Assembly (NCBI GenBank): GCA_005223075.1
Contig: NJBO01000003.1
Coordinates: 81,555 to 145,554, forward strand
Length of the DNA: 64,000 nt
Direction of reading: 5' to 3'
DNA from: a candidate division TA06 bacterium B3_TA06
GTDB taxonomy: Bacteria > Hydrothermota > Tepidihabitantia > B3-TA06
Shown here one piece after another: positions 17,492-55,940 of this stretch; position 1 is the stretch's first letter; each line of letters begins with the position of its first letter. The position numbers were made by a program, and so were the translations under genes. Under the pieces are notes generated by a model. That model worked only from the letters and a program-made list of their open reading frames with translations. It was not told the origin of the DNA and did no database searches.

Positions 17492-18655
17492 ATGCCGAAA
17501 ACCACAAAAAAAACAAACAAGTATGCAACAGATTCGGAGTTCGTCCGCGATCTGGAGCATGACATCACTGCCTTCATAAAGGCCGGCGCTGAACAATCCG
17601 ATGTCGACGAAAAGTACAACGAACTCGCCCTTCGGTTGTTTGAGTACCAATACAACATGAACATACCTTACCAGAAGTACTGTGACAAATACGGCAAAAA
17701 ACCAGGCACCATAGATTCCTGGGAAGAGATTCCCGTGGTTACCACTTCCGCATTCAAGGAAGTGACATTCAGGACCTTTCCGGAGGAAGAAACTGTAATG
17801 CTCATGACCAGTAGCGGAACAGACGATCCTGAAAAGCGCTCAAAGGTCTATCTTAATAAGATGGGTCTCGAGTTATTCGACTTGTCCACCCAAACCGCAA
17901 TAGAACTTGGATTGTATGGTTCCCCGGATGAGAAGTTTCACGCATTGTTGCTCGGTCCCGATCCCGAATTAACGCCCGAGGCATCTATAGTGGTACGCGG
18001 ACTAATACAAGTGGTTGAAGGGCATTATATCGGGAAGCCGGAATTCTTCATAAAGCCTGATGGGTTCGATTTCGCAGGCCTTGCCGAAAGACTCAGGCAG
18101 GCCGAAGAGACCGGTGAACCGGTGGTGATCGCTGGAGCCACGTTCGGACATATCCACTTCTTTGACTATTGCCAATCCCAGGGCATCTCCTTCAAGCTGC
18201 CCGAAGGCAGCCGCTGCTTTGACGGTGGAGGCTACAAAGGCAAAGCAAGACAGATCACCAGAGAAGAGTACTGTCAACTGGCTAAAAAGGTACTTGACGT
18301 ACCGTCACATCTTCTTGTAAATTGCTACGGCATGGTCGAGGTACCCTTGCCTTTCATGGAAAACGTATTCTACAACCACAGAAAAGGCATAAAGGAACCA
18401 CGCTACAAGATGATTCCTCACTGGGGGAAAACCCTGGTTGTTGATCCCGACACCCTGAAGCCTTTGCCCAAGGGCGAACGAGGATTGCTTCGTCATTACT
18501 GTTTGGCTAATCTTGTGACCGCGCAGGCTATTCAAACGGATGATGTAGGTGTCGCAATCGGTTCCGGCTTCGAAATCTTGGGCCGTGCAAAAGGCTCCGA
18601 GGCGCGCGGCTGTTCCATTGCCATTGACGAACTCCTCAGCGCACAAAAAAAATAA
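17492..18655 (+). CDS. LuxE-family acyl-protein synthetase (fatty acid-activating, PaaK/LuxE adenylating superfamily), copy 1
   Basis: From memory it aligns with Vibrio LuxE: N-terminal F.YQ.N..Y..YC...G..P, central TSSGT, C-terminal GRAKGSEARGCSIAIDEL with the acylated Cys position. Size is 387 aa. Confidence 0.8.
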   Translation: MPKTTKKTNKYATDSEFVRDLEHDITAFIKAGAEQSDVDEKYNELALRLFEYQYNMNIPYQKYCDKYGKKPGTIDSWEEIPVVTTSAFKEVTFRTFPEEETVMLMTSSGTDDPEKRSKVYLNKMGLELFDLSTQTAIELGLYGSPDEKFHALLLGPDPELTPEASIVVRGLIQVVEGHYIGKPEFFIKPDGFDFAGLAERLRQAEETGEPVVIAGATFGHIHFFDYCQSQGISFKLPEGSRCFDGGGYKGKARQITREEYCQLAKKVLDVPSHLLVNCYGMVEVPLPFMENVFYNHRKGIKEPRYKMIPHWGKTLVVDPDTLKPLPKGERGLLRHYCLANLVTAQAIQTDDVGVAIGSGFEILGRAKGSEARGCSIAIDELLSAQKK

Positions 18656-19889: not shown

Positions 19890-21041
19890 ATGCCGAAAAC
19901 AACAAAAAAAACAAAGAGGTATGCAGCCGATTCGGACTTCGTCCGCAATCTGGAACAGGACATCACAGCCTTCATAAAGGCAGGACGTGATCAAGCCGGC
20001 ACCGAGGAGCGCTTCAATGAACTGGCCCTTCTGTTGTTCGAGTACCATTATAACGCGAATGCGCCCTATCAGAAGTACTGCCAGAAAAGAGGAGTTGCCC
20101 CAGGCGAGATCCGCTCCTGGACACAGATCCCTGCGGTGCCCACAACCGCTTTCAAGGAGATCCCCTTATGCACCTTCCCACCGGAAAAGGCTGTGAAGGT
20201 CTTCACGAGCAGCGGGACCACCCAGCAGACCAAGCGCTCAACCCTTTATTTCGATGAAGCCGGGCTTCGCTTGCTTGAGCTGTCTCAGCAGACGGTGGTG
20301 ACTGAGACCATGTGTCGTGATTTCGACAAGGCTCGTCTTTTGCTCGCTGCTCCCCCACCAACTATGGCTCCCAATTTGGCGTTGACCAACTACCCGCTGC
20401 TCGCGCTTAAAGGCCGCCTGATTGGTGAGCCGGTGTATCTTATCGGCAAGGAAGGACTTGATTTCCCTGGATTGGTAGCGAACTTAAGAGAAGCCGAAGA
20501 TCCCCTGATTCTGACCGGAGCCACGTTCGCGTTCCTTCACTTCTTCGAGTACTCGAAATCCCAGAATATGTCGTTCCGGCTTCCCGAGAAAAGCGTTATA
20601 AACGACGGCGGAGGCTTCAAAGGGCAGGCGCGAGAGATACCCAGGGAAGAGTACTTCGAATTGGCCCGTCAGGTTCTCGGAATTCCACCGGAGCGCATCC
20701 TGAACGCCTACGGTTTGAGCGAGGTGGCCACGGGATTCAATGATAACGGATTGTACAACAAGACTAACGGCATAGATGGCCCACGTTACAAGATGATCCC
20801 GCACTGGGTTAAAGCGGTTGTGGTCGATCCGGATACGCTCAAACCCCTGCCCAAAGGCCAAACCGGCTTGCTGCGCTACCACTGCCTAACCAACTTTTCG
20901 AACGTGATGGCCGTGCAAAGCGACGATGTGGGTTATGCGGTCGAAGATGGCTTTGAGGTCGTAGGCAGAGCAAAAGGTGCTGAAGCACGCGGCTGCTCCA
21001 TTGCCATGGACGAGCTGATCAGTGCCCAAAAAATGAAGTAG
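19890..21041 (+). CDS. LuxE-family acyl-protein synthetase, copy 2
   Basis: It is a paralog of 17492-18655, roughly 55% identical by eye. The C-terminal Cys motif is retained (GRAKGAEARGCSIAMDEL). Confidence 0.8.
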   Translation: MPKTTKKTKRYAADSDFVRNLEQDITAFIKAGRDQAGTEERFNELALLLFEYHYNANAPYQKYCQKRGVAPGEIRSWTQIPAVPTTAFKEIPLCTFPPEKAVKVFTSSGTTQQTKRSTLYFDEAGLRLLELSQQTVVTETMCRDFDKARLLLAAPPPTMAPNLALTNYPLLALKGRLIGEPVYLIGKEGLDFPGLVANLREAEDPLILTGATFAFLHFFEYSKSQNMSFRLPEKSVINDGGGFKGQAREIPREEYFELARQVLGIPPERILNAYGLSEVATGFNDNGLYNKTNGIDGPRYKMIPHWVKAVVVDPDTLKPLPKGQTGLLRYHCLTNFSNVMAVQSDDVGYAVEDGFEVVGRAKGAEARGCSIAMDELISAQKMK

Positions 21042-23789: not shown

Positions 23790-24362
23790 ATGAGAGTTTA
23801 TCAATGTGGTAAGCGTTGGTATGTCGAGGACTCATACAACCCGAAAAGGTACCGCCGGTCCGCGGGTCGGACTAAGCGGGAGGCTCTTTTAAAACTTGGC
23901 GAGATTGAACGCTACAAAGAAGTCTGGATAGAGAATGTAAAGTCTGCTTCCGTTAACCGTGAGTTGGCGTTACTAAGGCATATGCTCCGTAAGGCAATAG
24001 ATTGGGATTACCTGCGGAAAGAAAATCCTGCAAGCAGGGTGAAACAGTTCAAGGAACCCTCAGGACGGGTAAGATACCTCTCCTTTGAAGAAAGAGAGCA
24101 ATTACTTGAAGCGTGTAAGCGGACTGGTATCGAGGATTTCCATTGTCACAGCCTTAGACACACCTTTGCCTCTTATCGCGTTATGGCGGGTGTAGACATC
24201 CGAACGGTTCAGGTACTGATGGGACACAAGGACATCAAGATGACCATGCGGTATTCGCATCTTTCCAAGAGATACCTCAGAAAGGCGGTAAACCGGATGG
24301 TCACAAATTGGTCACAAGTCGAGGATGCACCCGTCGAGCAATCTCCCAAGTTACGGAGTTAA
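23790..24362 (+). pseudogene. degenerate tyrosine-recombinase (integrase) remnant lacking most of the catalytic core
   Basis: The N-terminus is integrase-like (RRSAGRTKREALLKLGEIE). Box II is present (HSLRHTFAS...LMGHKDIKMTMRYSHL). The protein is only 190 aa, and the Box I Arg region between LSFEERE and HSLRH is missing. Confidence 0.5.
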
Positions 24363-24370
24363 AGAAACTT

Positions 24371-24442
24371 GCCGACGTAGCTCAGCGGTAGAGCAACGCT
24401 TTCGTAAAGCGTAGGCCGGTGGTTCGAATCCACTCGTCGGCT
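24371..24442 (+). tRNA. tRNA-Thr (anticodon CGU)
   Basis: A manual cloverleaf fold gives a 7-bp acceptor stem, D and T arms (GGTTCGAATCC), and anticodon loop TTCGTAA. No CCA is encoded. Confidence 0.9.
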
Positions 24443-24757
24443 TTTTCAATCGTTACCCAGTAGGGCGCAACCCGTTGTAACACAAGCACTTACAAGGGAT
24501 ATAGGTATCCCTTTGGGCGGGTGCAAGGTTTACCCTATCACACCTGAAAAGTAGGCGTTTGGGTGCAAAAATGGCTAAGAACCCCTAAAATAACACACCT
24601 ACTGACACAGCCCAAAAGGTGCTCGGAGAAACACAGCCCAAACACACCGCCGTCAGTTTGGGCCGCTGCCCAGAACTCAAAAGGTTAGTGCAGTAGGTCT
24701 ATATCTTCTCAAGCCGCTCTCTGAATCCGTCTTTCAAATGTACACGGGGCAACCTCG

Positions 24758-24973
24758 TCATTTTACCCGAATGTAAGTGTATCCTTCCTTTTTTATGTTT
24801 TGATCCAAATACTGACCTTTTGAAGGAGCATTCATAAGACCATCATATAAGGCAAGTGGAACACCAAAGTATTGATAGATTCTACCCCCATGAAACTCCA
24901 CCTCTAAGACTTGAGTAGATCGGTTGTACCCTACGGATACAAGATTACTCGATTGAACTGGGATTCTCTTCAT
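24758..24973 (-). CDS. KTSC-domain protein (71 aa)
   Basis: It matches the KTSC consensus (SSNLVSVGYNRSTQVLEVEFHGGRIYQYFGVPLALYDGLMNAPSKGQY). Its RBS overlaps the stop of the upstream ATPase gene. Confidence 0.7.
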   Translation of the reverse strand: MKRIPVQSSNLVSVGYNRSTQVLEVEFHGGRIYQYFGVPLALYDGLMNAPSKGQYLDQNIKKEGYTYIRVK

Positions 24974-24982
24974 CTTGTCACC

Positions 24983-27475
24983 TCAAATTTTCAGATTACC
25001 ACACCGACACTGCTTGAGTTTCGCATTGTTGGGTGAGTATTTTTTGCAAGCTTCTGTATTACAACTTGGACAAACGAAAAGGGCCTTAAATTCATCTATA
25101 TCTCTAAGAACCGTTTCCACATCCCCTCTACTTAAAGTAGTTGATTGCATGTTCCGATGATGTGAACCTAAATTTGTCAGCAGTTGACTTGCTCTTAAAT
25201 CATCAAAAATTGCTTTCCCATCCTTTGAACGCAGAGACTGGTTCTCATTTATGTAACTCCGCAGACCATCTAACAACTCGCTTGCTTCTCTTTGATCATT
25301 CCTAGGGCCTACACGAAATTCAAGGCTTTTCACACCGAGTTTAGAGCATTTGTCTTTCAACAATTCTTCAATTAAAGTTCTACAACGATTCGCAGCCTCA
25401 TGTATATTATTTCTCTCCAATTGCCATTTGATTCTTTCGTCTAATGTAGCTGGTGACTCTATGACCTCAACCCCTCTTTCAATTGACCATTTTTTCAACC
25501 CACGAAAACGCCATTTACCTGTAGGTGACAAGGTTTTCTTCAACTCTTCAAACCAGAGATCATCGTGTGTAAAAAGCAGAATCTGAACATCAGAAAACTC
25601 ATCACGGAGTAACCTTGCCAAAGCAAACCTGTGGTTCGAATCAAAACTGCTAATAACGTCATCGAGTATAATGAAATTGCTTACTTTGTTGAAGTATCTA
25701 ATGAAGGCTAAGAACAAACAGATACCAAGACTATTCATGTGGGATTCGCTTAGAACCTTTCGCGGTGGTGATATTTCCAAGCCGTGAAACAGAAGCTTGA
25801 ACTCGACACCCCTAAGTTCTGTTTGAATAAGCTGTATTTGATCTATTTTTTCGTCCAAATGAAGACGAGCAAAAAATTTTTCAACGTCGGAAGATATCAC
25901 CGAGATCACGGCGTTAAGCCCTTCCTTTTCTCGATTTTCAAAATCTCGTAGTACATGCCACATTGATGATATTTGTTCCCTGAATTTCTCAATCTTTTGA
26001 TTCAACCTTTGGATCTTTATAAAATTATCGCGCAATGAGTCAAGCCTGGCGACATTCCTGTAAAAAATCTTTTCTTCCTCGGTATCAGATAGTTCATCCT
26101 TGAGCGCTGCTAACTTCCCTCGTGTCTTTTGAATAGCTTCACTTAAGACTCTTAGACTTTCATCATTCGGCACTCCTACTTCAGTTGGTTCAATAACCTT
26201 CTGCATATTGATTGTCAAATCGTTCCACGCATTAAGGCGGTTCAGCCAGTTAATTATCTGATTCAATTCGTCGGGCAAGGTAAGGAGCTTCTTGTTTTCT
26301 TCGCTCTCGAATTCCTGGATTCCATCCATAGATGAAGTTATACTTACCCTCAATTGTTTCACGCTATCAATAAGTTCCTTTTTCTCTTTTAACAATGCTT
26401 CGAGCCTAATTACTTCTTCTTCCACAGTTTTTTGGAGTTGCAACGTATCAAATTTACTCTTACATAGAGGGCACTTGTTTGGTGCACCCCACCCTTTACT
26501 CAAAATCTGTTGGGCCTTGGCATAAAGACCTTCCCATGCCGAAGCAGCCAACAATTCCGGTTTCGCAACAAGTTTGTTGTGTTTGCCGGCGATGGTCTTT
26601 AACTGATTACAAATTTCTTCGGGTGTGCGTATTTTCTCAATGGCCCTCTGTAAAACCTCAACCGCAAGGCGCTTTTTACCTTTGTCGGTTCTCAATGTTT
26701 GTTCATCTAGGGTGTTGGCTACTGCAATTAGAGACTCAAAATCCGTTATTGGTTGAGGATGCTTTAGTTCTGCTCTTATTTGTTCAGTCGAACTGTCTGT
26801 CAAAGTCAGTCCCCTTAATTCGAGATGCTTTAGTTCTGCTCTTATTTGTTCAGCATAACTGATAATATCCTGAATTTCAAAAGTGTCGCGACCAATAATC
26901 CGACCGATTTCTTCTTTGCTATTCTGCAACCTAGCTTCATTTTGGATTAGTTCCTTGTCATCTTTCAACGCATTGTATACCTTCAGCAGAATCTCTCTCA
27001 TCTCCGTTACAACCCTAAACCCTACAATTTCCTCTATATCTTCAAGCTTTTCACTTTTTGTCTTGTCAACGAATCTTCCTATCGTAGAATGTCTTAAAAT
27101 GAATGATTCTTTCGCGACCTCCTCTATAAACTTATTAAATTCCTCAGATTGATTCGAAGAATAATACCCCCCTTTCCTTTTCAACGTCTTAACGGAGCTT
27201 AAGTTCACATCATCAAATTCAAGCGTAACAGTTGCATCTTGACTATCGGGCAAAGCCTTATTGAAGTAATCCTCTCTACCGCAACCTTCCTTTCTAAGGT
27301 CTTCTATTTCGTCAGTAAAGAACCATTCAATCGCATCTGTAAAGCTACTTTTACCATCACCATTGTTGCCGTATAAAACGAGATTTGGTGCATTATTGGG
27401 GAATTCAAGCACAACAGGCTTTAGAATGCCTCTGAAACCCTCTATGGTTAATCTCTTTAGACTAACTTTATCCAT
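24983..27475 (-). CDS. Rad50/SbcC-like ABC ATPase with coiled-coil zinc hook (CPLC) and C-terminal ~200-aa extension ending in a Cys4 Zn-ribbon; candidate RloC/PrrC-like anticodon nuclease
   Basis: Walker A is GNNGDGKSS. The middle is a long coiled coil containing CPLCKSKF. Near the C-terminus are Walker B/D-loop (FIILDDVISSFD) and an H-loop (LLFTHDD). The extension has an R-x3-E motif (RTLIEEL), SHH, and CPSC...CRCG. It sits next to a restriction-modification gene. Confidence 0.55.
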   Translation of the reverse strand: MDKVSLKRLTIEGFRGILKPVVLEFPNNAPNLVLYGNNGDGKSSFTDAIEWFFTDEIEDLRKEGCGREDYFNKALPDSQDATVTLEFDDVNLSSVKTLKRKGGYYSSNQSEEFNKFIEEVAKESFILRHSTIGRFVDKTKSEKLEDIEEIVGFRVVTEMREILLKVYNALKDDKELIQNEARLQNSKEEIGRIIGRDTFEIQDIISYAEQIRAELKHLELRGLTLTDSSTEQIRAELKHPQPITDFESLIAVANTLDEQTLRTDKGKKRLAVEVLQRAIEKIRTPEEICNQLKTIAGKHNKLVAKPELLAASAWEGLYAKAQQILSKGWGAPNKCPLCKSKFDTLQLQKTVEEEVIRLEALLKEKKELIDSVKQLRVSITSSMDGIQEFESEENKKLLTLPDELNQIINWLNRLNAWNDLTINMQKVIEPTEVGVPNDESLRVLSEAIQKTRGKLAALKDELSDTEEEKIFYRNVARLDSLRDNFIKIQRLNQKIEKFREQISSMWHVLRDFENREKEGLNAVISVISSDVEKFFARLHLDEKIDQIQLIQTELRGVEFKLLFHGLEISPPRKVLSESHMNSLGICLFLAFIRYFNKVSNFIILDDVISSFDSNHRFALARLLRDEFSDVQILLFTHDDLWFEELKKTLSPTGKWRFRGLKKWSIERGVEVIESPATLDERIKWQLERNNIHEAANRCRTLIEELLKDKCSKLGVKSLEFRVGPRNDQREASELLDGLRSYINENQSLRSKDGKAIFDDLRASQLLTNLGSHHRNMQSTTLSRGDVETVLRDIDEFKALFVCPSCNTEACKKYSPNNAKLKQCRCGNLKI

Positions 27476-27713
27476 TGCCTGCCTCTCTCAATTCCTTCAA
27501 CCCATTAAGAATCTCTTCTTTGGTAAATCTACTGCTATAAAAAAGGGAACGTAAAAGACCCATAACATCGGCATCGATCCGCAAAATGTCAAGTTCTTTA
27601 AAGAACTCCGCAACTAATTCCTTGCCTGTTTTTATGTCGGAAGCCTTCTCTCGCTCTTGTTCGCCCATTCCTATTTTCGGCTGTTCTTTTGTCTCGCCTG
27701 AAGATTCGGTCAT
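27468..27713 (-). CDS. hypothetical small protein (81 aa) between RM gene and ATPase gene
   Basis: A plausible RBS precedes the ORF. It overlaps the start of the downstream ATPase by 8 bp. No recognisable motif was found. Confidence 0.4.
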   Translation of the reverse strand: MTESSGETKEQPKIGMGEQEREKASDIKTGKELVAEFFKELDILRIDADVMGLLRSLFYSSRFTKEEILNGLKELREAGNG

Positions 27714-27921
27714 TTAATATCCTCTTTTTTGCCGATCTGCCAACCTCATAAGGAAATACTATACACTTAGACTATCCTTTTGTCAAGCCCCTTTGCCTAA
27801 AATTGCGACTTTAAGAAATTGCCTCTCTGAGATTTCAGAGCAGGATTAGGGCAAGGAATTGGTGCAAAAGTGGTGCAATTTTGGTGCAGGGGCTTAGGGT
27901 GAAATTATGGTGGGCGATAGT

Positions 27922-30900
27922 CTATCCCTTGCAGGGATTTCCCTTTCCTTCAACGATCTCGATTTCCTCAGGGGTTAAGGCATAAAGCTTGTAGACAAGG
28001 CGGTCAATCTCGCGGTCAGTTTCGGCGATCTCAGTTACGACCGGCGTGAGTTTGTTTTTGTATTTATCAAAACCTTTTGAGAGGAGCTCGTAGTTCCTGG
28101 GTTCGCGGGTGTTGAAGGCAAGCTTGCGGTTCTTTGCGATAAGGTCGGCAAGGGCGTTGGCATCGTCAAGCTTCTCAAGGCCGCGGATGCGCTCCCTGCC
28201 CGAAAGCTCAGCGAGCTTTGCCCCTATAAGGTGCTCCAGCCAGCCGGAGTATTCTTTAACTATCTCCTGCTTGCGCTTGTGCAGGTCAAGCATAGCTTGT
28301 ACAAGCTCAACCATATCGTTGTGCATCTTCTTGTCTTCGGGCTTGGAGAAGTCGATTGTGCGGATGGGCATAGACTCTACTTCGTTTGTTCCCACGTTGT
28401 TATTCGTACTTGTGATCTTAAATCTCCACTGGAACAACTTTGAATTTAACAAACCCATTAAATAATAAAGATCGTACTCCGTCCTAACATTCAAAGTAAT
28501 GGAATTTGTAGAATCCGCAAAATAGGTCGGTGGCTTTATAATCATTGCAACGATTCGCCATTTTTCATCAACTCCCGTTATTCTTTGAGTTGCTATACGA
28601 CGCTTGAATACTTCTTCAGGAATAGAATTTCCATCCTCCAAAAATTTCTTCTCATCGAACCATTCCCTTTCACCTTGACTTAACACATCTTGGAAATAGT
28701 ATCTCCCAATTTCCACTCCTTTCAATAATCTAGACATACTGGAATCACTGGTAATGAACTTGCTATATATTGTTTGATTGATTTCTCCTCTTCTTACATC
28801 AAAAGTATCTTCTTCTGCTAATCTTACAATACCTTCGGTTAGGTACATTTTCCGACAAACCTCCCAGTTACTCTGGTCAACTAAAGGAATAGGAATATTA
28901 TTTGGATCGAGCAATACCAAATCATCAAATTTGATTAAAGCCTCACGACATTCATCTTCAAAGCTGTTTCCAGGAAACACCCGGATATGAATTTGAGTCA
29001 TTTTGGGTGATTGAGGTTCGTTCATACAAGTAACAATCGTTGTGGACAGTTTTGCATCCTTAAAAATTCTCCGTTTAGAATTATCTTTTTGCGGGAAACA
29101 ATCTGCTAATAATTCGCAGGTTGAAAGCATCAAATTACGTCGCGCTTTTGAGCAACTTATATCTGCAACCAAAGATAAAGGCACAATCATACCAAATCGA
29201 TCCCCTCGTTGTAAAAGCCCTAATGCTCTTACAATAAATAATCGGTACAGATTAAGCTTACCACCTAGCGCTGCCTCGTACAGAGGGATATTCTTTACAT
29301 AATCACCCAATTCTTTATGGGGGCTAGAGATTCCTTTCCTTTCCTTCTCAAGAACGTCATACGGCGGATTCCCTATCACCGCGTCGAAGCCGGGATTGGC
29401 AAGCGGCCTGCCGTGCTTATCGAAAAACACTTCTGGAAACTCAAGCTCCCAGTGGAAAAAGTGATGCTTGTTCCAGAGCTTAGTTGCTTTATCCACCCAC
29501 TTTTCGCGCTCCAGCGCGGCAAATGCCTTTTTATCGTCTTGCCTCAGCGCTTCCACAAGCCGCGAGTAGTCCTTCGGCTTGACCTCGTTCCCGAAGTAGG
29601 TGGAGACCCAGACGTCGGCGGCCTGGCGAAAAGGTTTCATCATCCCCCGCGCCTGCTTGAGCCGCTTTATCTTGTCATCTATCTGGTCAATGGTATCCGA
29701 AGGCTCGTCCTCAATTTGCTTATAATAGACTATCGTGCGTGCCGAGTAGTGTTCAACTATCTGCTGAAACAGCGAGCCGGTTTTCTCGCCCGGCAGGTTG
29801 CCAAGCTCTGCAACCTTTGCGCCGATAAGCGAATCTCCAGGACGCAGGTGATGGTCAAGGAAGGAAAGCGGCTTGTTCGCGGCCACGGTTGAAAGCCACA
29901 AGGAAAGCTTGGCAAGCTCCACAGCAAGCGGGTTCTTATCCACCCCGAAGATGCAGCGCTCTATAATCAAACGCTTTGCCTTGCCGATCTCGTCCTCCGT
30001 TTCCTCAATCTCCTTAACTCCCAGAAGCTTGGGGGCAAGGAAATCGGTTGCCTCAACCAGAAAGTGTCCCGAACCCATTGCCGGGTCGAGCACACGGAGC
30101 GAAAGGAGTTCCTTCTCTTTAATGTCCTTGGTCAGCGGTTCAAGGGTGTGCTCGACAATGTATTTCACGATGTAGTCCGGCGTGTAGTAAGAGCCTGTGG
30201 CCTTGCGGTCGCCCCGCTCTGTCACGGGGTAGTATTCCCCTTTCCCTACGCTGTCCGTAGTTTTGCTTATCTCCTCTTCTTTGCGTTCCCGCAAGGGCTT
30301 CCATTGCTCTTTCTTTCCCTTTTTTACCGCGACCATCGGCTCAGAGGCAACCTCAAGATGATTTTCTAAAAGCCCCTCGTATATGCTCCCAAGGTCCCTG
30401 ATTTTCAAGCTCGAATAGTCAATGAACTCCTTTTTTGGCGTAGTCTTTGTCTGGGGTCTGGATAAAAGGTCAATAACCTCGGCAAGCCAGCGGTCGCCTA
30501 TTTTGTACTTCTTGAGGAACTCGTGCTGATTGTCATCGAAGAGACCACCGTTATAAGGGGCAATACCCAGGTCTTTTTCCCCCTGGTCTATAAGTGTTGA
30601 AAGGGCAGATAGTTTGCCCCACAGCATAGGTATGCTGCCGCCGTAAGGCGGCCCGTCCTTCCTTGCGTATATCTCCTCCTTCATACTCTCCAGGCTGTAG
30701 TGTTGAAGGTAGCTTCTGTTAGAGATTGGCAGGAGCAACTTATCTTCGGCGTAGAGTATAAACAAGAGACGGTAGAGAAGAACAAAGCAGTTTTCGCGTA
30801 TAAGCTCCTTGTCGCGCACAGGCTCCAAGCGGTTTTCTTTAAACTCCACGAATCCCTGAGCGAGTATTCGAAGCGCCTTGTAAACGTTGTCCTTAAGCTC

Positions 30901-31647
30901 CGCGCCGACGGCTTCAGCGTAACGGACTGAGCCGTCAAGCACGTAGTCGAGAAATCGCGGGAATGCTTGACAGCGAAAGAACATGTAGAAATACTTAAAG
31001 GCTTCAAGTTGTTCATCACGGCTTACGCCTGCTGCAAAGAGGGGCCCGTCGGAGTTTATTAGGCTTACAAGATTAACCTCGTAGTAGCGGTCAAGGTGTT
31101 TGCTTTGTTCCCGCTCATACAAACGCCAGATTCGCCCGTTAGTGAGTATGCCCCAACGTACCTCGCTATAGAGAAGATACAGGTGCATTTGGTAGGCAGG
31201 GTTGCGGTACTCGAAATCAAACAGGTCGGGCTCGTAACGCGATGAAAGGTCTAATTTGCGATTCCAATGCTTGGCTTCGCAAAGACCTATTGCTTTGTTG
31301 AAAAGCTCCCATTCCTTGCCCTTTTCCGTAGAGGCTTTCTTTTTTGCAGATTCCGTGTCGAATAACGCATAATCGGGCCTTCTGATGCCTTCGGCGGTTT
31401 TCTCTCGCGGTTGAACAATGTAATGGTGACCGAGTATTTCGAGTATGGGCCTGATGAAGTCGTTTTCCAGTTGAGGTTCGCTTAAAGCGGGGAGTCTCGT
31501 TAAATTCTCCTTATAGAGCTTGGAGATACCTTCAAAGGCTTCTTCAATCCCTTCGTGATCCCGCCATTCTCTTTCTTCTGGTAGTATTTCTTCAAGGTAG
31601 TGGTTTGAGAAGAGGTCTTGATTGGTGTGTAAAGAATTGGTACCCAT
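27922..31647 (-). CDS. type IIG/IIL restriction-modification enzyme (fused PD-(D/E)xK nuclease + N6-adenine methyltransferase + target-recognition domain)
   Basis: The N-terminus has a PD...E-x-K motif (RRPDYALFD...GLCEAKHW). MTase motif I is VLDPAMGSGHFL and motif IV is GNPPYD. A C-terminal region of about 450 aa is the likely target-recognition domain. Confidence 0.8.
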   Translation of the reverse strand: MGTNSLHTNQDLFSNHYLEEILPEEREWRDHEGIEEAFEGISKLYKENLTRLPALSEPQLENDFIRPILEILGHHYIVQPREKTAEGIRRPDYALFDTESAKKKASTEKGKEWELFNKAIGLCEAKHWNRKLDLSSRYEPDLFDFEYRNPAYQMHLYLLYSEVRWGILTNGRIWRLYEREQSKHLDRYYEVNLVSLINSDGPLFAAGVSRDEQLEAFKYFYMFFRCQAFPRFLDYVLDGSVRYAEAVGAELKDNVYKALRILAQGFVEFKENRLEPVRDKELIRENCFVLLYRLLFILYAEDKLLLPISNRSYLQHYSLESMKEEIYARKDGPPYGGSIPMLWGKLSALSTLIDQGEKDLGIAPYNGGLFDDNQHEFLKKYKIGDRWLAEVIDLLSRPQTKTTPKKEFIDYSSLKIRDLGSIYEGLLENHLEVASEPMVAVKKGKKEQWKPLRERKEEEISKTTDSVGKGEYYPVTERGDRKATGSYYTPDYIVKYIVEHTLEPLTKDIKEKELLSLRVLDPAMGSGHFLVEATDFLAPKLLGVKEIEETEDEIGKAKRLIIERCIFGVDKNPLAVELAKLSLWLSTVAANKPLSFLDHHLRPGDSLIGAKVAELGNLPGEKTGSLFQQIVEHYSARTIVYYKQIEDEPSDTIDQIDDKIKRLKQARGMMKPFRQAADVWVSTYFGNEVKPKDYSRLVEALRQDDKKAFAALEREKWVDKATKLWNKHHFFHWELEFPEVFFDKHGRPLANPGFDAVIGNPPYDVLEKERKGISSPHKELGDYVKNIPLYEAALGGKLNLYRLFIVRALGLLQRGDRFGMIVPLSLVADISCSKARRNLMLSTCELLADCFPQKDNSKRRIFKDAKLSTTIVTCMNEPQSPKMTQIHIRVFPGNSFEDECREALIKFDDLVLLDPNNIPIPLVDQSNWEVCRKMYLTEGIVRLAEEDTFDVRRGEINQTIYSKFITSDSSMSRLLKGVEIGRYYFQDVLSQGEREWFDEKKFLEDGNSIPEEVFKRRIATQRITGVDEKWRIVAMIIKPPTYFADSTNSITLNVRTEYDLYYLMGLLNSKLFQWRFKITSTNNNVGTNEVESMPIRTIDFSKPEDKKMHNDMVELVQAMLDLHKRKQEIVKEYSGWLEHLIGAKLAELSGRERIRGLEKLDDANALADLIAKNRKLAFNTREPRNYELLSKGFDKYKNKLTPVVTEIAETDREIDRLVYKLYALTPEEIEIVEGKGNPCKG

Positions 31648-32246
31648 GTCTACCCCCAGTATATCTAACTATAAGAGTACGTCAAGCATATTCCCCTTCA
31701 CCCCGCAGCAGTGTAGCACTAACCAGCAGGCGCGAGGCAGGGCTGCTTGTCTAAAAAGCGTTCCAAGGCTCAGGCGAAAACCGACTTTAAGAAGATAGAG
31801 GACGAAGTTAAGAAAACAGAAGAGGAGCAAGCTAGACTTGTCAAAATACGCAAAGAACAAGACAAGGAAGCCTGCCAAGACTTTATTATTTGAGATGATT
31901 AGATTTAGGGAAATAAAAATGCCCATAAATAACTGCCAGGGGAAGGAATTATTAAGTTGCGCAATTGCGCCACTTAGTAAACGCAAGCGTATTTATTGGT
32001 TTATTGGAAAAAATGGGGGAAATGGTGGATAAATCTATAATTAAGGAATAAATACAGCAAACTCAAGGCGACACTACGTCTATTGCTATCCCGTATTGAT
32101 GATTCCCTTCCCGCTCTATAGCCTTTCTTTCCTTCCGCACTTCCGAGCCTGCTGATTGCGATTACTTCGTGGCATACGGTTTTAATGAAGAAGAATTAAA
32201 AAACGCTCAAACTTGATAAATACATCATAGACACCATGCGTGGAGC

Positions 32247-33578
32247 TTGCGTGGAAGGGGGCTTGACACGAAGGAAATAGGGACTATTCTTATATCAACA
32301 ATGGGAATTCAAATGAATAAAAGACAAATTTTTTTCATCATCGCGATAGCCGTTGGCATATTGTTGCTGATTCTCCTTGCGAAGAAAATGGGAACGGTTA
32401 CGGATCAGCCTGTACTGCGAAGGAAATCGAGACACAAAAGGACACGTGAGGAAAGAGAGATAGGGCGATTAAACGTTAAGTCCCTTGACATCCGGGCAGG
32501 TGCGGATAGAATACCCGTAGACGTGGGCATCTACCGTAGGGAAAACGGGATGCTCTACGTGCGTGTAATGATTGACGGAAAGCTTATCCGCCGGTCTCTG
32601 GAGACTCGAAAAGAGTCTGAGGCTCTATTGAAAATCCGGAGTGTAATTATGGCTGCCTTGGAAGGTCAAAAAGCAAAGGAAGTCCCGACGCTTGCAGAGT
32701 TCACTAAGACCTATCTAGCCTACAGTAAACGCCAGTACTCAAAAAGCACCTATGCAAGGAACCTTTGCAGGATGTCGAAGCTCATAGAGAACTTTGGCTC
32801 TATGAGGCTTGACCAGATAGACAAGCGGGCGATTAAACTCCACTCTCAGAAACGTCTGCAGGAAGTGTCCCCAGCATCGGTGAACTGTGAACGGTCGTTG
32901 CTAAGCTCCATAATGGAGTATGCCTGTGAGCTTGACTTCATTCAAGAGAATCCTGTCAGGAAAGTAAAGAAGCTTAGGGAATCCCCAGGCCGAGAACGCT
33001 ATCTGACCCCAGACGAAATCAAACGGCTCCTTGACGCCTGCAAGGCGCTAAGCGAACGGAAAGGCGTTGGACACAACCCAATCCTGTATGAGATTGTCTT
33101 AACCGCTATCCTCACCGGCTTACGTAAAGGTAATCTACAGAACCTGAAGTGGAGTCAAGTGGATTTTAAGACAGGGAATATCATTATCCCCGCCGGTGAA
33201 CACAAAAACCGCAAGCCGCTCTACTTCCCGATTAACCCCTACTTGCAGGAGATATTGTCAGGACTAAGGCATAACTACCCTTACGCTGAATACGTCTTCT
33301 GCAAGGCTGACGGCACTGAATATGGAGATTGGAAAAGGAGCTTTAACACCGCGTGCGAAACAGCCGGTTTAGAGGACGTTCGCTTCCACGACTTAAGGCA
33401 TACATGTGGAACCCTTCTGAACATGCTGGGTACGAACCAATATACTATCCGTGCGCTTATGGGACACCGCACATTAGCTGCGTCCAAGCGATACGTCCAC
33501 ACCCCGCCTGAAACAGTCAGAGAAGCGTCTAACGCTTTAGGAGACCGCCTGAGACGTATCCTAGACGGCAGCGACTAA
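32247..33578 (+). CDS. int: tyrosine-type site-specific integrase
   Basis: Catalytic motifs HDLRHTCGT, LMGHRTLAASKRYVH. The annotated N-terminus has a hydrophobic segment, so the true start may be an internal Met around 32388. Confidence 0.85.
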   Translation: MRGRGLDTKEIGTILISTMGIQMNKRQIFFIIAIAVGILLLILLAKKMGTVTDQPVLRRKSRHKRTREEREIGRLNVKSLDIRAGADRIPVDVGIYRRENGMLYVRVMIDGKLIRRSLETRKESEALLKIRSVIMAALEGQKAKEVPTLAEFTKTYLAYSKRQYSKSTYARNLCRMSKLIENFGSMRLDQIDKRAIKLHSQKRLQEVSPASVNCERSLLSSIMEYACELDFIQENPVRKVKKLRESPGRERYLTPDEIKRLLDACKALSERKGVGHNPILYEIVLTAILTGLRKGNLQNLKWSQVDFKTGNIIIPAGEHKNRKPLYFPINPYLQEILSGLRHNYPYAEYVFCKADGTEYGDWKRSFNTACETAGLEDVRFHDLRHTCGTLLNMLGTNQYTIRALMGHRTLAASKRYVHTPPETVREASNALGDRLRRILDGSD

Positions 33579-33649: not shown

Positions 33650-33696
33650 TCGCTTTCGTAAAGCGTAGGCCGGTGGTTCGAATCCACTCGTCGGCT
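33650..33696 (+). repeat. partial tRNA-Thr 3' half (attR-type direct repeat)
   Basis: Over 47 nt it matches tRNA positions 26-72 exactly (acgctttcgtaaagcgtaggccggtggttcgaatccactcgtcggct). The upstream sequence does not match the tRNA 5' half. Confidence 0.75.
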
Positions 33697-33858
33697 TACA
33701 GCCGGGCCACAAGGCCCGGTTCACCTTTATTGGTGAACGGGAGTTACTTGACAATAAAGCCCAACCGCTCTATACTGCCAAACCGAAGAGCAAACCTTTT
33801 GGGTCGCTTGTAGCGTCGAATAACGGTACAGATTCTAACAATTGAGGAGGAGAAAAGA

Positions 33859-54846: not shown

Positions 54847-54877
54847 CCCCACAAGAGCGCTTAGCGCTCTTGTGGGG
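54847..54877. terminator. perfect 14-bp stem hairpin (CCCCACAAGAGCGC-TTA-GCGCTCTTGTGGGG) between the SPFH gene and recF
   Basis: The hairpin is visible directly. It overlaps the TTG start given for recF in the ORF track. Confidence 0.5.
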
Positions 54878-54884
54878 TGAAACT

Positions 54885-55940
54885 GTGTGGCTTGCTGAAA
54901 TCTCCGTCTCTGGTTTTCGCAACCTTGCCGAGCAGGGTCTGGAGTTCGATCCGCGGTCCAACATTATCTTCGGGCCTAACGGCTCGGGTAAGACGAATCT
55001 TTTGGAGGCGATCACCGTCCTTGCCTCGGGCCGCAGCTTCCGTACCATCCAGGACGATCAGCTCCTGGGTTTTGAAGCCCCTCATTTCCGTATAGCCGGG
55101 AAGGCAAGAAGTTCCAAGGATAAGGAGTGGTCTGCGAGGGTTTACTTCTCGCCTGCCGAACGCAAGCACTACTTCTTTGACCGGCGCGAGATAGCCAAAC
55201 GCTCCCTTTATGCCGGTTGGCTGCCTGTGTTCGTATTTCTCTTGGACGACCGCCGCATTGTGGCTGGTCCACCTGCATACCGCAGGGCGTTCATCGACGA
55301 AGCTGTAGCCAAGCTTTCTCACGCTTACCGATGGATGCTTTCAGAGTTCCGCAAACTGCTTGCCCACCGCAACGCGCTGCTGCGCAGGCCTGGAGGCGAC
55401 GATGAGCTTTCGGTATGGGATAAGCGCCTGGCCGAGCTGGCAGGCGAGATCCGCGAGCGGCGCTTGGAGTACTGGCAAAACTTCAATGGTCACTTCCAGC
55501 AGATGAGCCGGCGTTTCCTGCCCGCTGATGAGATTCGGTTGGAGTATCTTCCAAACGTGGGCGGGAAAGAAAACTATCTTGAGGTTCTGGCTCGAAGCAG
55601 GGAGGCGGAGCGTCAGGTTGGCTACACCCGCCGCGGTCCGCACCGCGACGACTTTCGTATTCTTCTCAACTCTCGCCCATTGCGTATCTTCGGTTCCTAC
55701 GGCGAGCATCGGCTTGCAGCCCTTGCCCTTGCCTTGGCCGAGGCCCAGACCGCGTTGGCCGCCGGACGCAGACCCATCTATCTCATGGACGATGTGGCTG
55801 CCGAGCTTGATAACGACAACACACACCTGCTCTTCGATCTTATTCGTTCCAAGGGTCAGCTTTTCTATGCCTCGGCCCACCCGCCCGCACTCGAAGGAAG
55901 ACGTTTTCATGTCAGGCAAGGAAAGATCAGGCCGGTTTGA
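54885..55940 (+). CDS. recF: DNA replication and repair protein RecF
   Basis: Walker A GPNGSGKTNLLEAI and the signature region are present. The start is probably the GTG at 54885, downstream of the hairpin. Confidence 0.9.
   Translation: MWLAEISVSGFRNLAEQGLEFDPRSNIIFGPNGSGKTNLLEAITVLASGRSFRTIQDDQLLGFEAPHFRIAGKARSSKDKEWSARVYFSPAERKHYFFDRREIAKRSLYAGWLPVFVFLLDDRRIVAGPPAYRRAFIDEAVAKLSHAYRWMLSEFRKLLAHRNALLRRPGGDDELSVWDKRLAELAGEIRERRLEYWQNFNGHFQQMSRRFLPADEIRLEYLPNVGGKENYLEVLARSREAERQVGYTRRGPHRDDFRILLNSRPLRIFGSYGEHRLAALALALAEAQTALAAGRRPIYLMDDVAAELDNDNTHLLFDLIRSKGQLFYASAHPPALEGRRFHVRQGKIRPV

Follow-up and report, generated by a model that had tools for sequence, protein, structure and literature searches.

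RloC proteins are defined by the motifs of an ABC ATPase, a coiled-coil insert carrying a CX2C zinc hook and an Arg-X3-Glu-X36-52-His signature in which a serine often precedes the histidine, the triad in the Geobacillus kaustophilus protein (GkaRloC) being R692, E696 and H737 (PMC2610378). The RloC nuclease needs both ATP and DNA, linear DNA being the most effective form, yet double-strand breaks alone did not activate the enzyme in vivo, and an internal silencing switch has been described for it (PMC3458546). PrrC, from the PrrC-EcoprrI system, likewise joins an ABC ATPase to a C-terminal nuclease in a restriction-modification (RM) locus, in this case of type Ic, and both RloC and PrrC are toxic once unleashed (PMC2610378). 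The available text of these RloC reports describes the enzyme with no mention of a partner protein (PMC2610378, PMC3458546).

The KTSC domain (Pfam PF13619) is represented by the crystal structures 7x8c, the entry for which is named 'KTSC domain-containing protein', and 4rgi, and forms the C-terminal domain of the HerA ATPase from Paenibacillus sp. 453MF (8wiv and six other entries); the statement in the first-pass annotation that the domain is otherwise uncharacterized is therefore outdated. The title of Tian et al. (2022), cited in PMC11237433 and taken here to be the 7x8c paper, announces single-stranded DNA (ssDNA) binding by a protein of the KTSC family and gives no defence context, and the Aravind group has also called the domain DNA-binding. 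The open literature on defence yielded nothing on KTSC or PF13619 beyond a one-line unpublished remark, and a general link between KTSC and defence appears to be essentially undescribed.

The window, a stretch of 64,000 nucleotides from candidate division TA06 bacterium B3_TA06, contains a module that is RloC-like, linked to RM and equipped with KTSC as an accessory; its ATPase is 100% identical to a protein deposited for this organism. The module lies on an island bounded by a 47-nucleotide perfect direct repeat (plus strand, 24397..24443 and 33651..33697), the left copy of which is the 3' part of a tRNA-Thr(CGT) gene (24371-24442; ARAGORN) and the right copy of which closes the 9.25-kb element. 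Between these att repeats lie only the genes for the KTSC protein, the ATPase, an 81-residue protein, a type IIG RM enzyme, an unannotated ORF of 105 residues (31669-31986, minus strand) and a tyrosine integrase (443 residues; 32247..33578, plus strand; Pfam Phage_integrase 1e-25 and Int_N), with KTSC coming last, ahead of the island's att site. From 25 to 29 kb the GC content drops to 39-42%, the flanks being at 54-59%, and the element is a compact integrative defence island. The type IIG enzyme (1241 residues; 27922..31647, minus strand) matches Eco57I (2e-23), N6_Mtase and TaqI_C in Pfam and REase_MTase_IIG (3e-70) in PADLOC, where it also shows a DrmMI-like methyltransferase region. A sigma-70-like match, TTGACA-17-TATAGT (11/12 positions; 27758..27786, minus strand), separates the RM gene from that for the 81-residue protein; as the product of a consensus scan only it is not evidence of function, but it suggests that the 81-residue protein, the ATPase and KTSC may form their own transcription unit.

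The Rad50/RloC-like ATPase (830 residues; 24983..27475, minus strand) matches SMC_N (1e-16) and AAA_23 (1.5e-11) in Pfam, and its heads match those of Rad50 and SMC proteins in the PDB at 1e-23. Against Pfam AAA_13, the PrrC/RloC family, it reaches only 16.1 bits, under the cutoff of 36. The AF2 model (pLDDT 84.5) shows long paired helices and, at the C-terminus, a helical domain finishing in a zinc ribbon. A family alignment places the ABC motifs G36xxG-K42-S, LSESH...N581SLG, D605-D606 and H637 as invariant or nearly so, with D605, D606 and H637 invariant in 61 diverse family members of 19-42% identity, the set on which all conservation counts given here are based. The zinc hook, C335-P-L-C338 (codons at 26462..26473, minus strand), sits in the model between long helices that span residues 306-326 and 344-390; all 61 members share C335 and P336, 60/61 have C338, and one of them matches Pfam Rad50_zn_hook. 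The coiled coil also contains a 66-nucleotide tandem duplication, seen as a direct repeat (26758..26861, minus strand), in which TEQIRAELKH is repeated at residues ~210-230; it corresponds to a 22-column (~21-residue) gap in the close metagenomic relative L005, and the pLDDT falls below 50 at residues 223-237.

The C-terminal domain (residues 655-830; 24986..25513, minus strand) is helical in the model and carries R699-x3-E703, N726, R729 and S771-H772; beyond these comes a zinc ribbon, CxxC...CxC, made up of C802, C805, C823 and C825. Conservation is high at R699 (60/61), the acidic position 703 (61/61), S771 (59/61), H772 (61/61), N726 (55/61), R729 (58/61) and the four ribbon cysteines (57-59/61). 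The domain has no match in Pfam and no genuine sequence match in the PDB, where only spurious helical proteins were returned, and a fold search gave nothing significant, the best geometry being that of HEPN proteins (4nqf, TM 0.42-0.49). A 176-residue profile of the domain run against 1.84 billion proteins found it in 1116 cluster representatives; in the best 150 of these it is C-terminal, in proteins mostly of ~770-835 residues, the shorter ones probably being fragments.

Judged by its motifs, the window ATPase can be counted as a member of a divergent RloC-like family, because the ABC motifs, the CPxC hook and an R-x3-E/D...S-H pattern with a longer spacer are found at nearly the RloC positions. 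As in RloC, a coiled coil bearing a CX2C zinc hook interrupts an ABC ATPase, the size of about 800 residues is within the published range and the gene is linked to an RM system, as RloC occasionally is by insertion into RM loci; a candidate counterpart of the C-proximal R-x3-E...S-H motif falls at R699/E703 (R692/E696 in GkaRloC). Unlike RloC, the window protein scores under the AAA_13 cutoff (29/61 family members reach AAA_13 at E<=1e-3, the best at 1.7e-14), the acid-to-histidine spacing in its family is 60-77 residues rather than the 36-52 of RloC (PMC2610378), and the module adds a four-cysteine zinc ribbon, an upstream partner that is near-universal in the family (~60 residues) and the KTSC gene. 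The view of the ATPase in the first-pass annotation as a candidate anticodon nuclease is supported by the ABC motifs, the hook, the R-x3-E...S-H-like pattern and the RM linkage, from which the C-terminal domain is predicted to be an RNase and the protein would be a nuclease, possibly a tRNase.

The window ATPase shares with PrrC the combination of an ABC ATPase and a (putative) C-terminal nuclease in an RM locus and the R-x3-E...H triad logic; however, PrrC has ~400 residues and no coiled coil or zinc hook, whereas the window protein has 830 residues with a coiled coil, its RM partner is of type IIG (type III in relatives) and its match to the PADLOC PrrC model (2e-5) covers only residues 586-650 in the Walker-B region, so that membership of PrrC was rejected. 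The best PADLOC match is LmuB of Lamassu (1e-27, ahead of PDC-S06 at 1.5e-9), with which the protein shares SMC/Rad50-type heads and a coiled coil. Neither the R/E/H domain at the C-terminus nor the zinc ribbon belongs to LmuB, and a Lamassu assignment was likewise rejected because neither an LmuA effector nor an LmuC kleisin is encoded nearby and the match is to the generic heads and coiled coil only. OLD-family proteins (Gabija GajA, P2 Old and PARIS AriA) resemble the window protein in fusing an ABC-type ATPase to a nuclease, which in the window is putative, but carry a TOPRIM DNase in place of the helical R/E/H domain.

The gene that ends the module encodes 71 residues (24758..24973, minus strand), and its identification in the first-pass annotation as a KTSC domain is borne out: the ORF matches PF13619 at E=1.9e-24 (85.5 bits, cutoff 25) over profile positions 1-57 of 58, which far exceeds chance. 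PDB profiles give the same result, with matches to 7x8c (1.4e-30), HerA 8wiv residues 628-696 (2.8e-25) and 4rgi (3.3e-24). Like 7x8c, with which it shares 29/61 identical residues (48%), the window protein is a single domain of ~70 residues, although 7x8c is a stand-alone euryarchaeal protein. At the junction with the ATPase gene (24974..24985, minus strand) the stop codon TGA (24985-24983) shares bases with the Shine-Dalgarno-like GAGGTGA (24984-24978), as noted in the first-pass annotation and confirmed in the sequence (minus strand ...AAAATTTGAGGTGACAAGATG). The gap from the ATPase stop to the KTSC ATG is 9 nt, and the full junction reads TTTGAGGTGACAAGATG. In L005, whose ATPase is 83% identical, the gene order is the same (RM, 81 residues, ATPase, KTSC) and the junction is kept (TTTGAGGTGACATGATG), even though the next gene downstream differs from that in the window. 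The KTSC proteins of the two loci are 96% identical, with a dN/dS of 0.018/0.117 (about 0.15, an estimate from 8 substitutions only) against 0.077/0.301 for the ATPase. KTSC is therefore a real gene under purifying selection, and from the spacing of the two genes their co-transcription and translational coupling are probable.

The reading proposed here is that KTSC serves the RloC-like ATPase unit as a small accessory subunit that binds nucleic acid, most likely ssDNA, and we give this proposal about an even chance of being correct. A DNA-binding helper fits such a unit because the RloC nuclease needs ATP and DNA (PMC3458546). By analogy with the protein named in the title of Tian et al., the window KTSC may bind ssDNA; its fusion to HerA and its places in operons, described below, argue for a physical association of KTSC with ATPases. 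The window protein may contact its ATPase, and a role in sensing DNA may be envisaged.

The only structural description of KTSC within a defence ATPase suggests a different function. In HerA an 'arm domain' (residues 576-696), which includes the KTSC region (628-696), contacts the neighbouring ATPase subunit, wraps its RecA-like domain and stabilizes a split-spiral hexamer (PMC11472057). The arm is presented there as a structural brace only, with no report of DNA binding and no naming of KTSC. The Paenibacillus system resembles the window in pairing a defence ATPase with KTSC, fused in the former and a separate gene in the latter, but HerA is an FtsK/HerA-type hexameric ATPase working with a SIR2 NADase effector, whereas the window ATPase would form a Rad50-type ABC dimer. 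KTSC could by extension be a structural or oligomerization brace that docks on the ATPase head and stabilizes an assembly state with no sensing of nucleic acid, and the tight operonic spacing would suit a stoichiometric complex. This is nevertheless unlikely, as one small domain would have to fit HerA rings, OLD and Rad50-type dimers of ABC proteins, the cyclase of CBASS and Cas8a/Cas7, its sequences form no partner-specific clades (see below) and a stand-alone KTSC protein has, by its title, been published as an ssDNA binder.

The range of KTSC partners emerges from a genome scan, used for context in place of a word-index protein search that returned only 21 relatives. With one genome per GTDB species, 257 relatives of the window's KTSC subfamily were found, and the best 80 were analysed, these being the closest to that subfamily and not a sample of the whole Pfam family. 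A recognized defence gene lies within two genes of KTSC in about 48/80 loci, a raw count obtained from heuristic ORF calls and blastp clusters of which only representatives were annotated with Pfam and PADLOC. Gaps to the neighbour on the same strand are mostly -38 to +20 nt. An OLD-family ATPase-TOPRIM nuclease occurs in 22/80 loci (18/24 genes of this cluster lie immediately downstream of KTSC, which in this system usually precedes the ATPase). HerA occurs in 14/80, immediately upstream of KTSC in 13 of the 14 and with SIR2 at -2 in 10; in the window and L005 KTSC likewise follows the ATPase, at a distance of 9 nt. Independent gene calls with precomputed Pfam annotation agree on the SIR2-HerA-KTSC and OLD-KTSC arrangements. 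Members of the window's own ATPase family were met at three loci (L013 and L059, with KTSC upstream of the ATPase, and L012, nearby), and PDC-S06/AAA_13 ATPases adjoin KTSC at L040 and L051. The latter encodes a canonical RloC (769 residues; AAA_13 2.5e-95; CLFC at 286; R682-x3-E686-x37-S723-H724) in an operon of the order KTSC - 73 aa - RloC - 343 aa. A CBASS cyclase and 4TM effector follow KTSC at 3 loci, KTSC is sandwiched between Cas8a and Cas7 at 2, and Mrr, HsdM, type IIG/III RM and PD-(D/E)XK genes adjoin it at several. Fusions occur as well, with KTSC at the C-terminal end of Schlafen-AlbA_2/HATPase_c_4 proteins. These data suggest that KTSC recurs as an accessory in several ATPase/nuclease systems of defence. 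Outside defence contexts KTSC is found in phages, one case among the independent gene calls being beside a portal gene; these calls also gave one place beside an IS element, and integrases too are among its neighbours.

Identity among KTSC sequences is 0.59-0.61 within partner classes and 0.57-0.58 between them, and a neighbour-joining tree, of low resolution owing to the short alignment, showed no partner-specific clades; in it the window KTSC is not sister to those of L013, L148 and L059, which also accompany ATPases of its partner's family. The lack of clustering by partner argues against a co-evolved specific interface and suggests that the main task of KTSC is generic, namely nucleic-acid binding, and not partner-specific. 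The same observation, together with the occurrence of KTSC in phages and near IS elements or integrases and its terminal position ahead of the att site, would also suit a protein that acts independently of the ATPase as a small DNA-binding regulator or mobile-element protein of defence islands, such as a phage-type ssDNA-binding protein, a transcription factor or a helper in excision. We regard such independence as quite unlikely, since the positions of KTSC are highly specific (+1 to OLD in 18/24 and HerA at -1 in 13/14), the gaps are a few nucleotides or overlaps and the domain is fused to HerA and Schlafen-AlbA_2 proteins. An excisionase-like role at the island end in particular was down-weighted because L005 keeps the ATPase-KTSC junction in front of a different downstream gene.

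The variety of partners bears equally on a possible role with RNA. The name KTSC derives from a C-terminal extension of lysyl-tRNA synthetase, and the tRNA association put forward in the first-pass annotation goes back to that name. One review also calls KTSC an RNA-binding domain, and KTSC adjoins RloC-like ATPases in several arrangements, so that it might be a tRNA or RNA adaptor presenting the substrate tRNA to the anticodon-nuclease domain. There is only a slight chance of this, because most partner systems are DNA-directed or are not tRNases (OLD TOPRIM proteins, SIR2-HerA, RM, Cas8a-Cas7 and CBASS); in addition, the one biochemical study, as its title has it, reports ssDNA binding, and more than 90% of the ATPase family as well as the characterized GkaRloC function without KTSC.

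The ATPase family was surveyed through 90 loci, comprising 80 from metagenomes selected by ATPase similarity alone, the window and 9 others. A homologous ORF of 57-81 residues abuts within a few nucleotides or overlaps the ATPase start in 78/90 loci, and 74 of these 78 ORFs fall in one blastp cluster; in the window it is the 81-residue gene (27468..27713, minus strand), which overlaps the ATPase start by 8 nt and has no match in Pfam, PADLOC, NCBIfam or PHROGs. The near-universal partner of the ATPase is thus this upstream protein of ~60 residues and not KTSC. In a subclade of ~46% identity the ATPase lies between type III Mod and Res genes, and a subclade of ~30% identity has an extra protein of ~155 residues upstream, for which, as for the 343-residue protein of the RloC operon at L051, no Pfam, PADLOC or PDB match was found. 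Among the independently sampled loci KTSC lies downstream of the ATPase in 0/66 with enough downstream sequence and in an operon upstream of it in 1/57 (L148), while in 2 it is 3.4 kb away, inside an adjacent SIR2-HerA-KTSC operon. The arrangement seen in the window is thus shared only by its close relative L005, and the absence of KTSC from more than 90% of the family implies that it is dispensable for the core mechanism. The suggestion of the first-pass annotation that KTSC is a dedicated partner of this ATPase does not survive these counts, and of the neighbourhood survey that it had proposed the strong, position-specific link to defence genes holds (about 48/80 KTSC loci, with a canonical RloC at L051 and a PDC-S06/AAA_13 ATPase at L040), whereas that to this ATPase family (0/66) does not. 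An obligatory antitoxin or immunity role, also raised in that annotation, is unlikely on the same figures, and the idea that KTSC neutralizes the toxic nuclease until infection, attractive for a small protein encoded in tight coupling right after a putative effector of a class that is toxic once unleashed (PMC2610378), is highly improbable because most of the family lacks KTSC and conserves a different small protein at the ATPase start (78/90), and also in view of the fusion of KTSC to the ATPase of a functional SIR2-HerA system, its frequent place as first gene before OLD nucleases and the internal silencing switch of RloC (PMC3458546).

As an accessory subunit that binds nucleic acid, KTSC would be co-expressed as the last member of a three-gene unit (81-residue partner, RloC-like ATPase and KTSC) riding behind the type IIG restriction enzyme on the island at tRNA-Thr. 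The ATPase would be a latent RloC-type effector, and KTSC would supply or sharpen its DNA input, for instance by attaching to tails of single-stranded DNA or to intermediates of phage replication, or alternatively would tether the ATPase to DNA. KTSC would then be a facultative, interchangeable plug-in, as a gene or a fusion, for OLD, SIR2-HerA, RloC, CBASS, Cas8a-Cas7 and RM systems; in relatives without it the type III Res subunit might, speculatively, provide the DNA input. A wider claim, tentative and in our view somewhat unlikely, is that KTSC is a widespread, interchangeable ssDNA sensor recruited by unrelated anti-phage systems (OLD, SIR2-HerA, RloC-like tRNases, CBASS, type I-A CRISPR effector complexes and RM), which would license their effectors on a shared infection cue, for example single-stranded intermediates of phage DNA.

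Beyond the window module, the survey suggests a broader pattern in which KTSC is an accessory shuffled among many defence systems; the domain went unrecognized in the solved SIR2-HerA structure (8wiv) and has no PADLOC model. A sizeable RloC-like family that had no annotation emerges as well, with 1116 cluster representatives, a conserved partner of ~60 residues and insertion into RM operons of type III or type IIG. RloC-type nucleases need DNA and yet are not triggered in vivo by double-strand breaks alone (PMC3458546), and a putative ssDNA-binding accessory gene tied to an RloC-like ATPase is a candidate for the input that RloC is missing. If the sensor reading is true, KTSC would give the RloC-type nucleases their missing trigger in vivo.

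The 9.25-kb low-GC island is enclosed by a perfect 47-nt direct repeat (24397-24443 and 33651-33697) that corresponds to the 3' part of a tRNA-Thr. It carries the KTSC gene, the RloC-like ATPase gene, an 81-aa gene, a type IIG restriction-modification gene, an integrase gene (32247-33578) and a single 105-aa ORF that lacks annotation. With this small gene set, the repeat-bounded interval is therefore a minimal mobile defence island. Directly upstream of the tRNA-Thr, beyond the island border, a 190-aa ORF (23790-24362, + strand), whose tyrosine-integrase domain is limited to its C-terminal portion, is probably a leftover of an older integration event. A few kilobases from the island lie two paralogous ORFs of about 385 aa (17492-18655 and 19890-21041, + strand) with near-identical N-termini, MPKTTKKT.(K/R)YA.DS.FVR.LE.DITAFIKAG, after which a 477-aa ORF comes next.

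Comparison loci containing KTSC homologs place this domain in several settings. A recurring cassette, with Bacteroidota among its hosts, is composed, in this order, of a KTSC gene, a gene for a 73-aa protein in some cases, an ATPase-nuclease gene and a gene for a 343-aa protein that has no match in Pfam, PADLOC or the PDB (L051, 5309-9078; L084, 6001-9253; L034, L037, L041, L042 and L056); the ATPase-nuclease belongs to the OLD family in most of these loci and is a canonical RloC in L051. The domain also forms the C-terminus of proteins of about 615-670 aa that also carry Schlafen AlbA_2 and HATPase_c_4 together with a Fic-like C-terminal winged helix (L037, 3658-5514; L038, 3985-5988; L072, 4288-6225), and these fusions are often neighboured by an OLD nuclease gene and by another KTSC gene that stands alone.

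In two loci (L021, 13-2534; L054, 4190-7185) KTSC lies between a Cas8a-like gene, which it overlaps by 4 nt, and a Cas7 (DevR/Csa2) gene, and is thus a small ssDNA-binding-type protein within a type I-A-like CRISPR effector operon. In cyanobacteria (L018, 871-2678; L027; L032) a CBASS oligonucleotide cyclase and a 4TM effector are encoded directly downstream of KTSC, with a gap of 21 nt. In four methanogen genomes of the Methanotrichaceae (L011, L030, L049 and L057) a conserved arrangement places KTSC convergent with uvrB at a distance of 11-13 nt; this pairing is a DNA-repair context, not a defence context.

About 150 nt past the KTSC stop codon are conserved in both the window (24600-24757, - strand) and the metagenomic relative L005 (4637-4790), in which the next gene differs. 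This stretch may be a 3' UTR or a terminator element; a simple terminator scan called none.

The coiled coil of the ATPase contains a tandem duplication of 66 nt (26758-26861), repeating TEQIRAELKH, which is missing in the 83%-identical relative and is modelled with low confidence by AF2. Elsewhere in the window, an ORF at 54870-55940 (+ strand) matches the ATPase-family HMM weakly (E = 2e-6) and probably encodes an ABC/SMC-type ATPase head that is unrelated.

In 78 of the 90 family loci, the RloC-like ATPase gene is overlapped at its start by the gene of a protein of about 60 aa (in the window the 81-aa gene, 27468-27713, - strand; equivalents in L001-L165), which has the consensus IKSG.E....FF......D..V...L..L...GKLT....L..L..LR and zero matches in any library searched. 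In a subclade with about 46% identity (L001-L004, L089, L091, L092, L101 and L104), the genes of the ATPase and this small protein form an insertion flanked on one side by the gene of a type III-like Mod methyltransferase (∼690 aa) and on the other by that of a Res helicase (∼840 aa), a placement resembling that of PrrC inside a type I locus. The ∼60-aa protein is the true conserved partner of the RloC-like ATPase and a candidate regulator.
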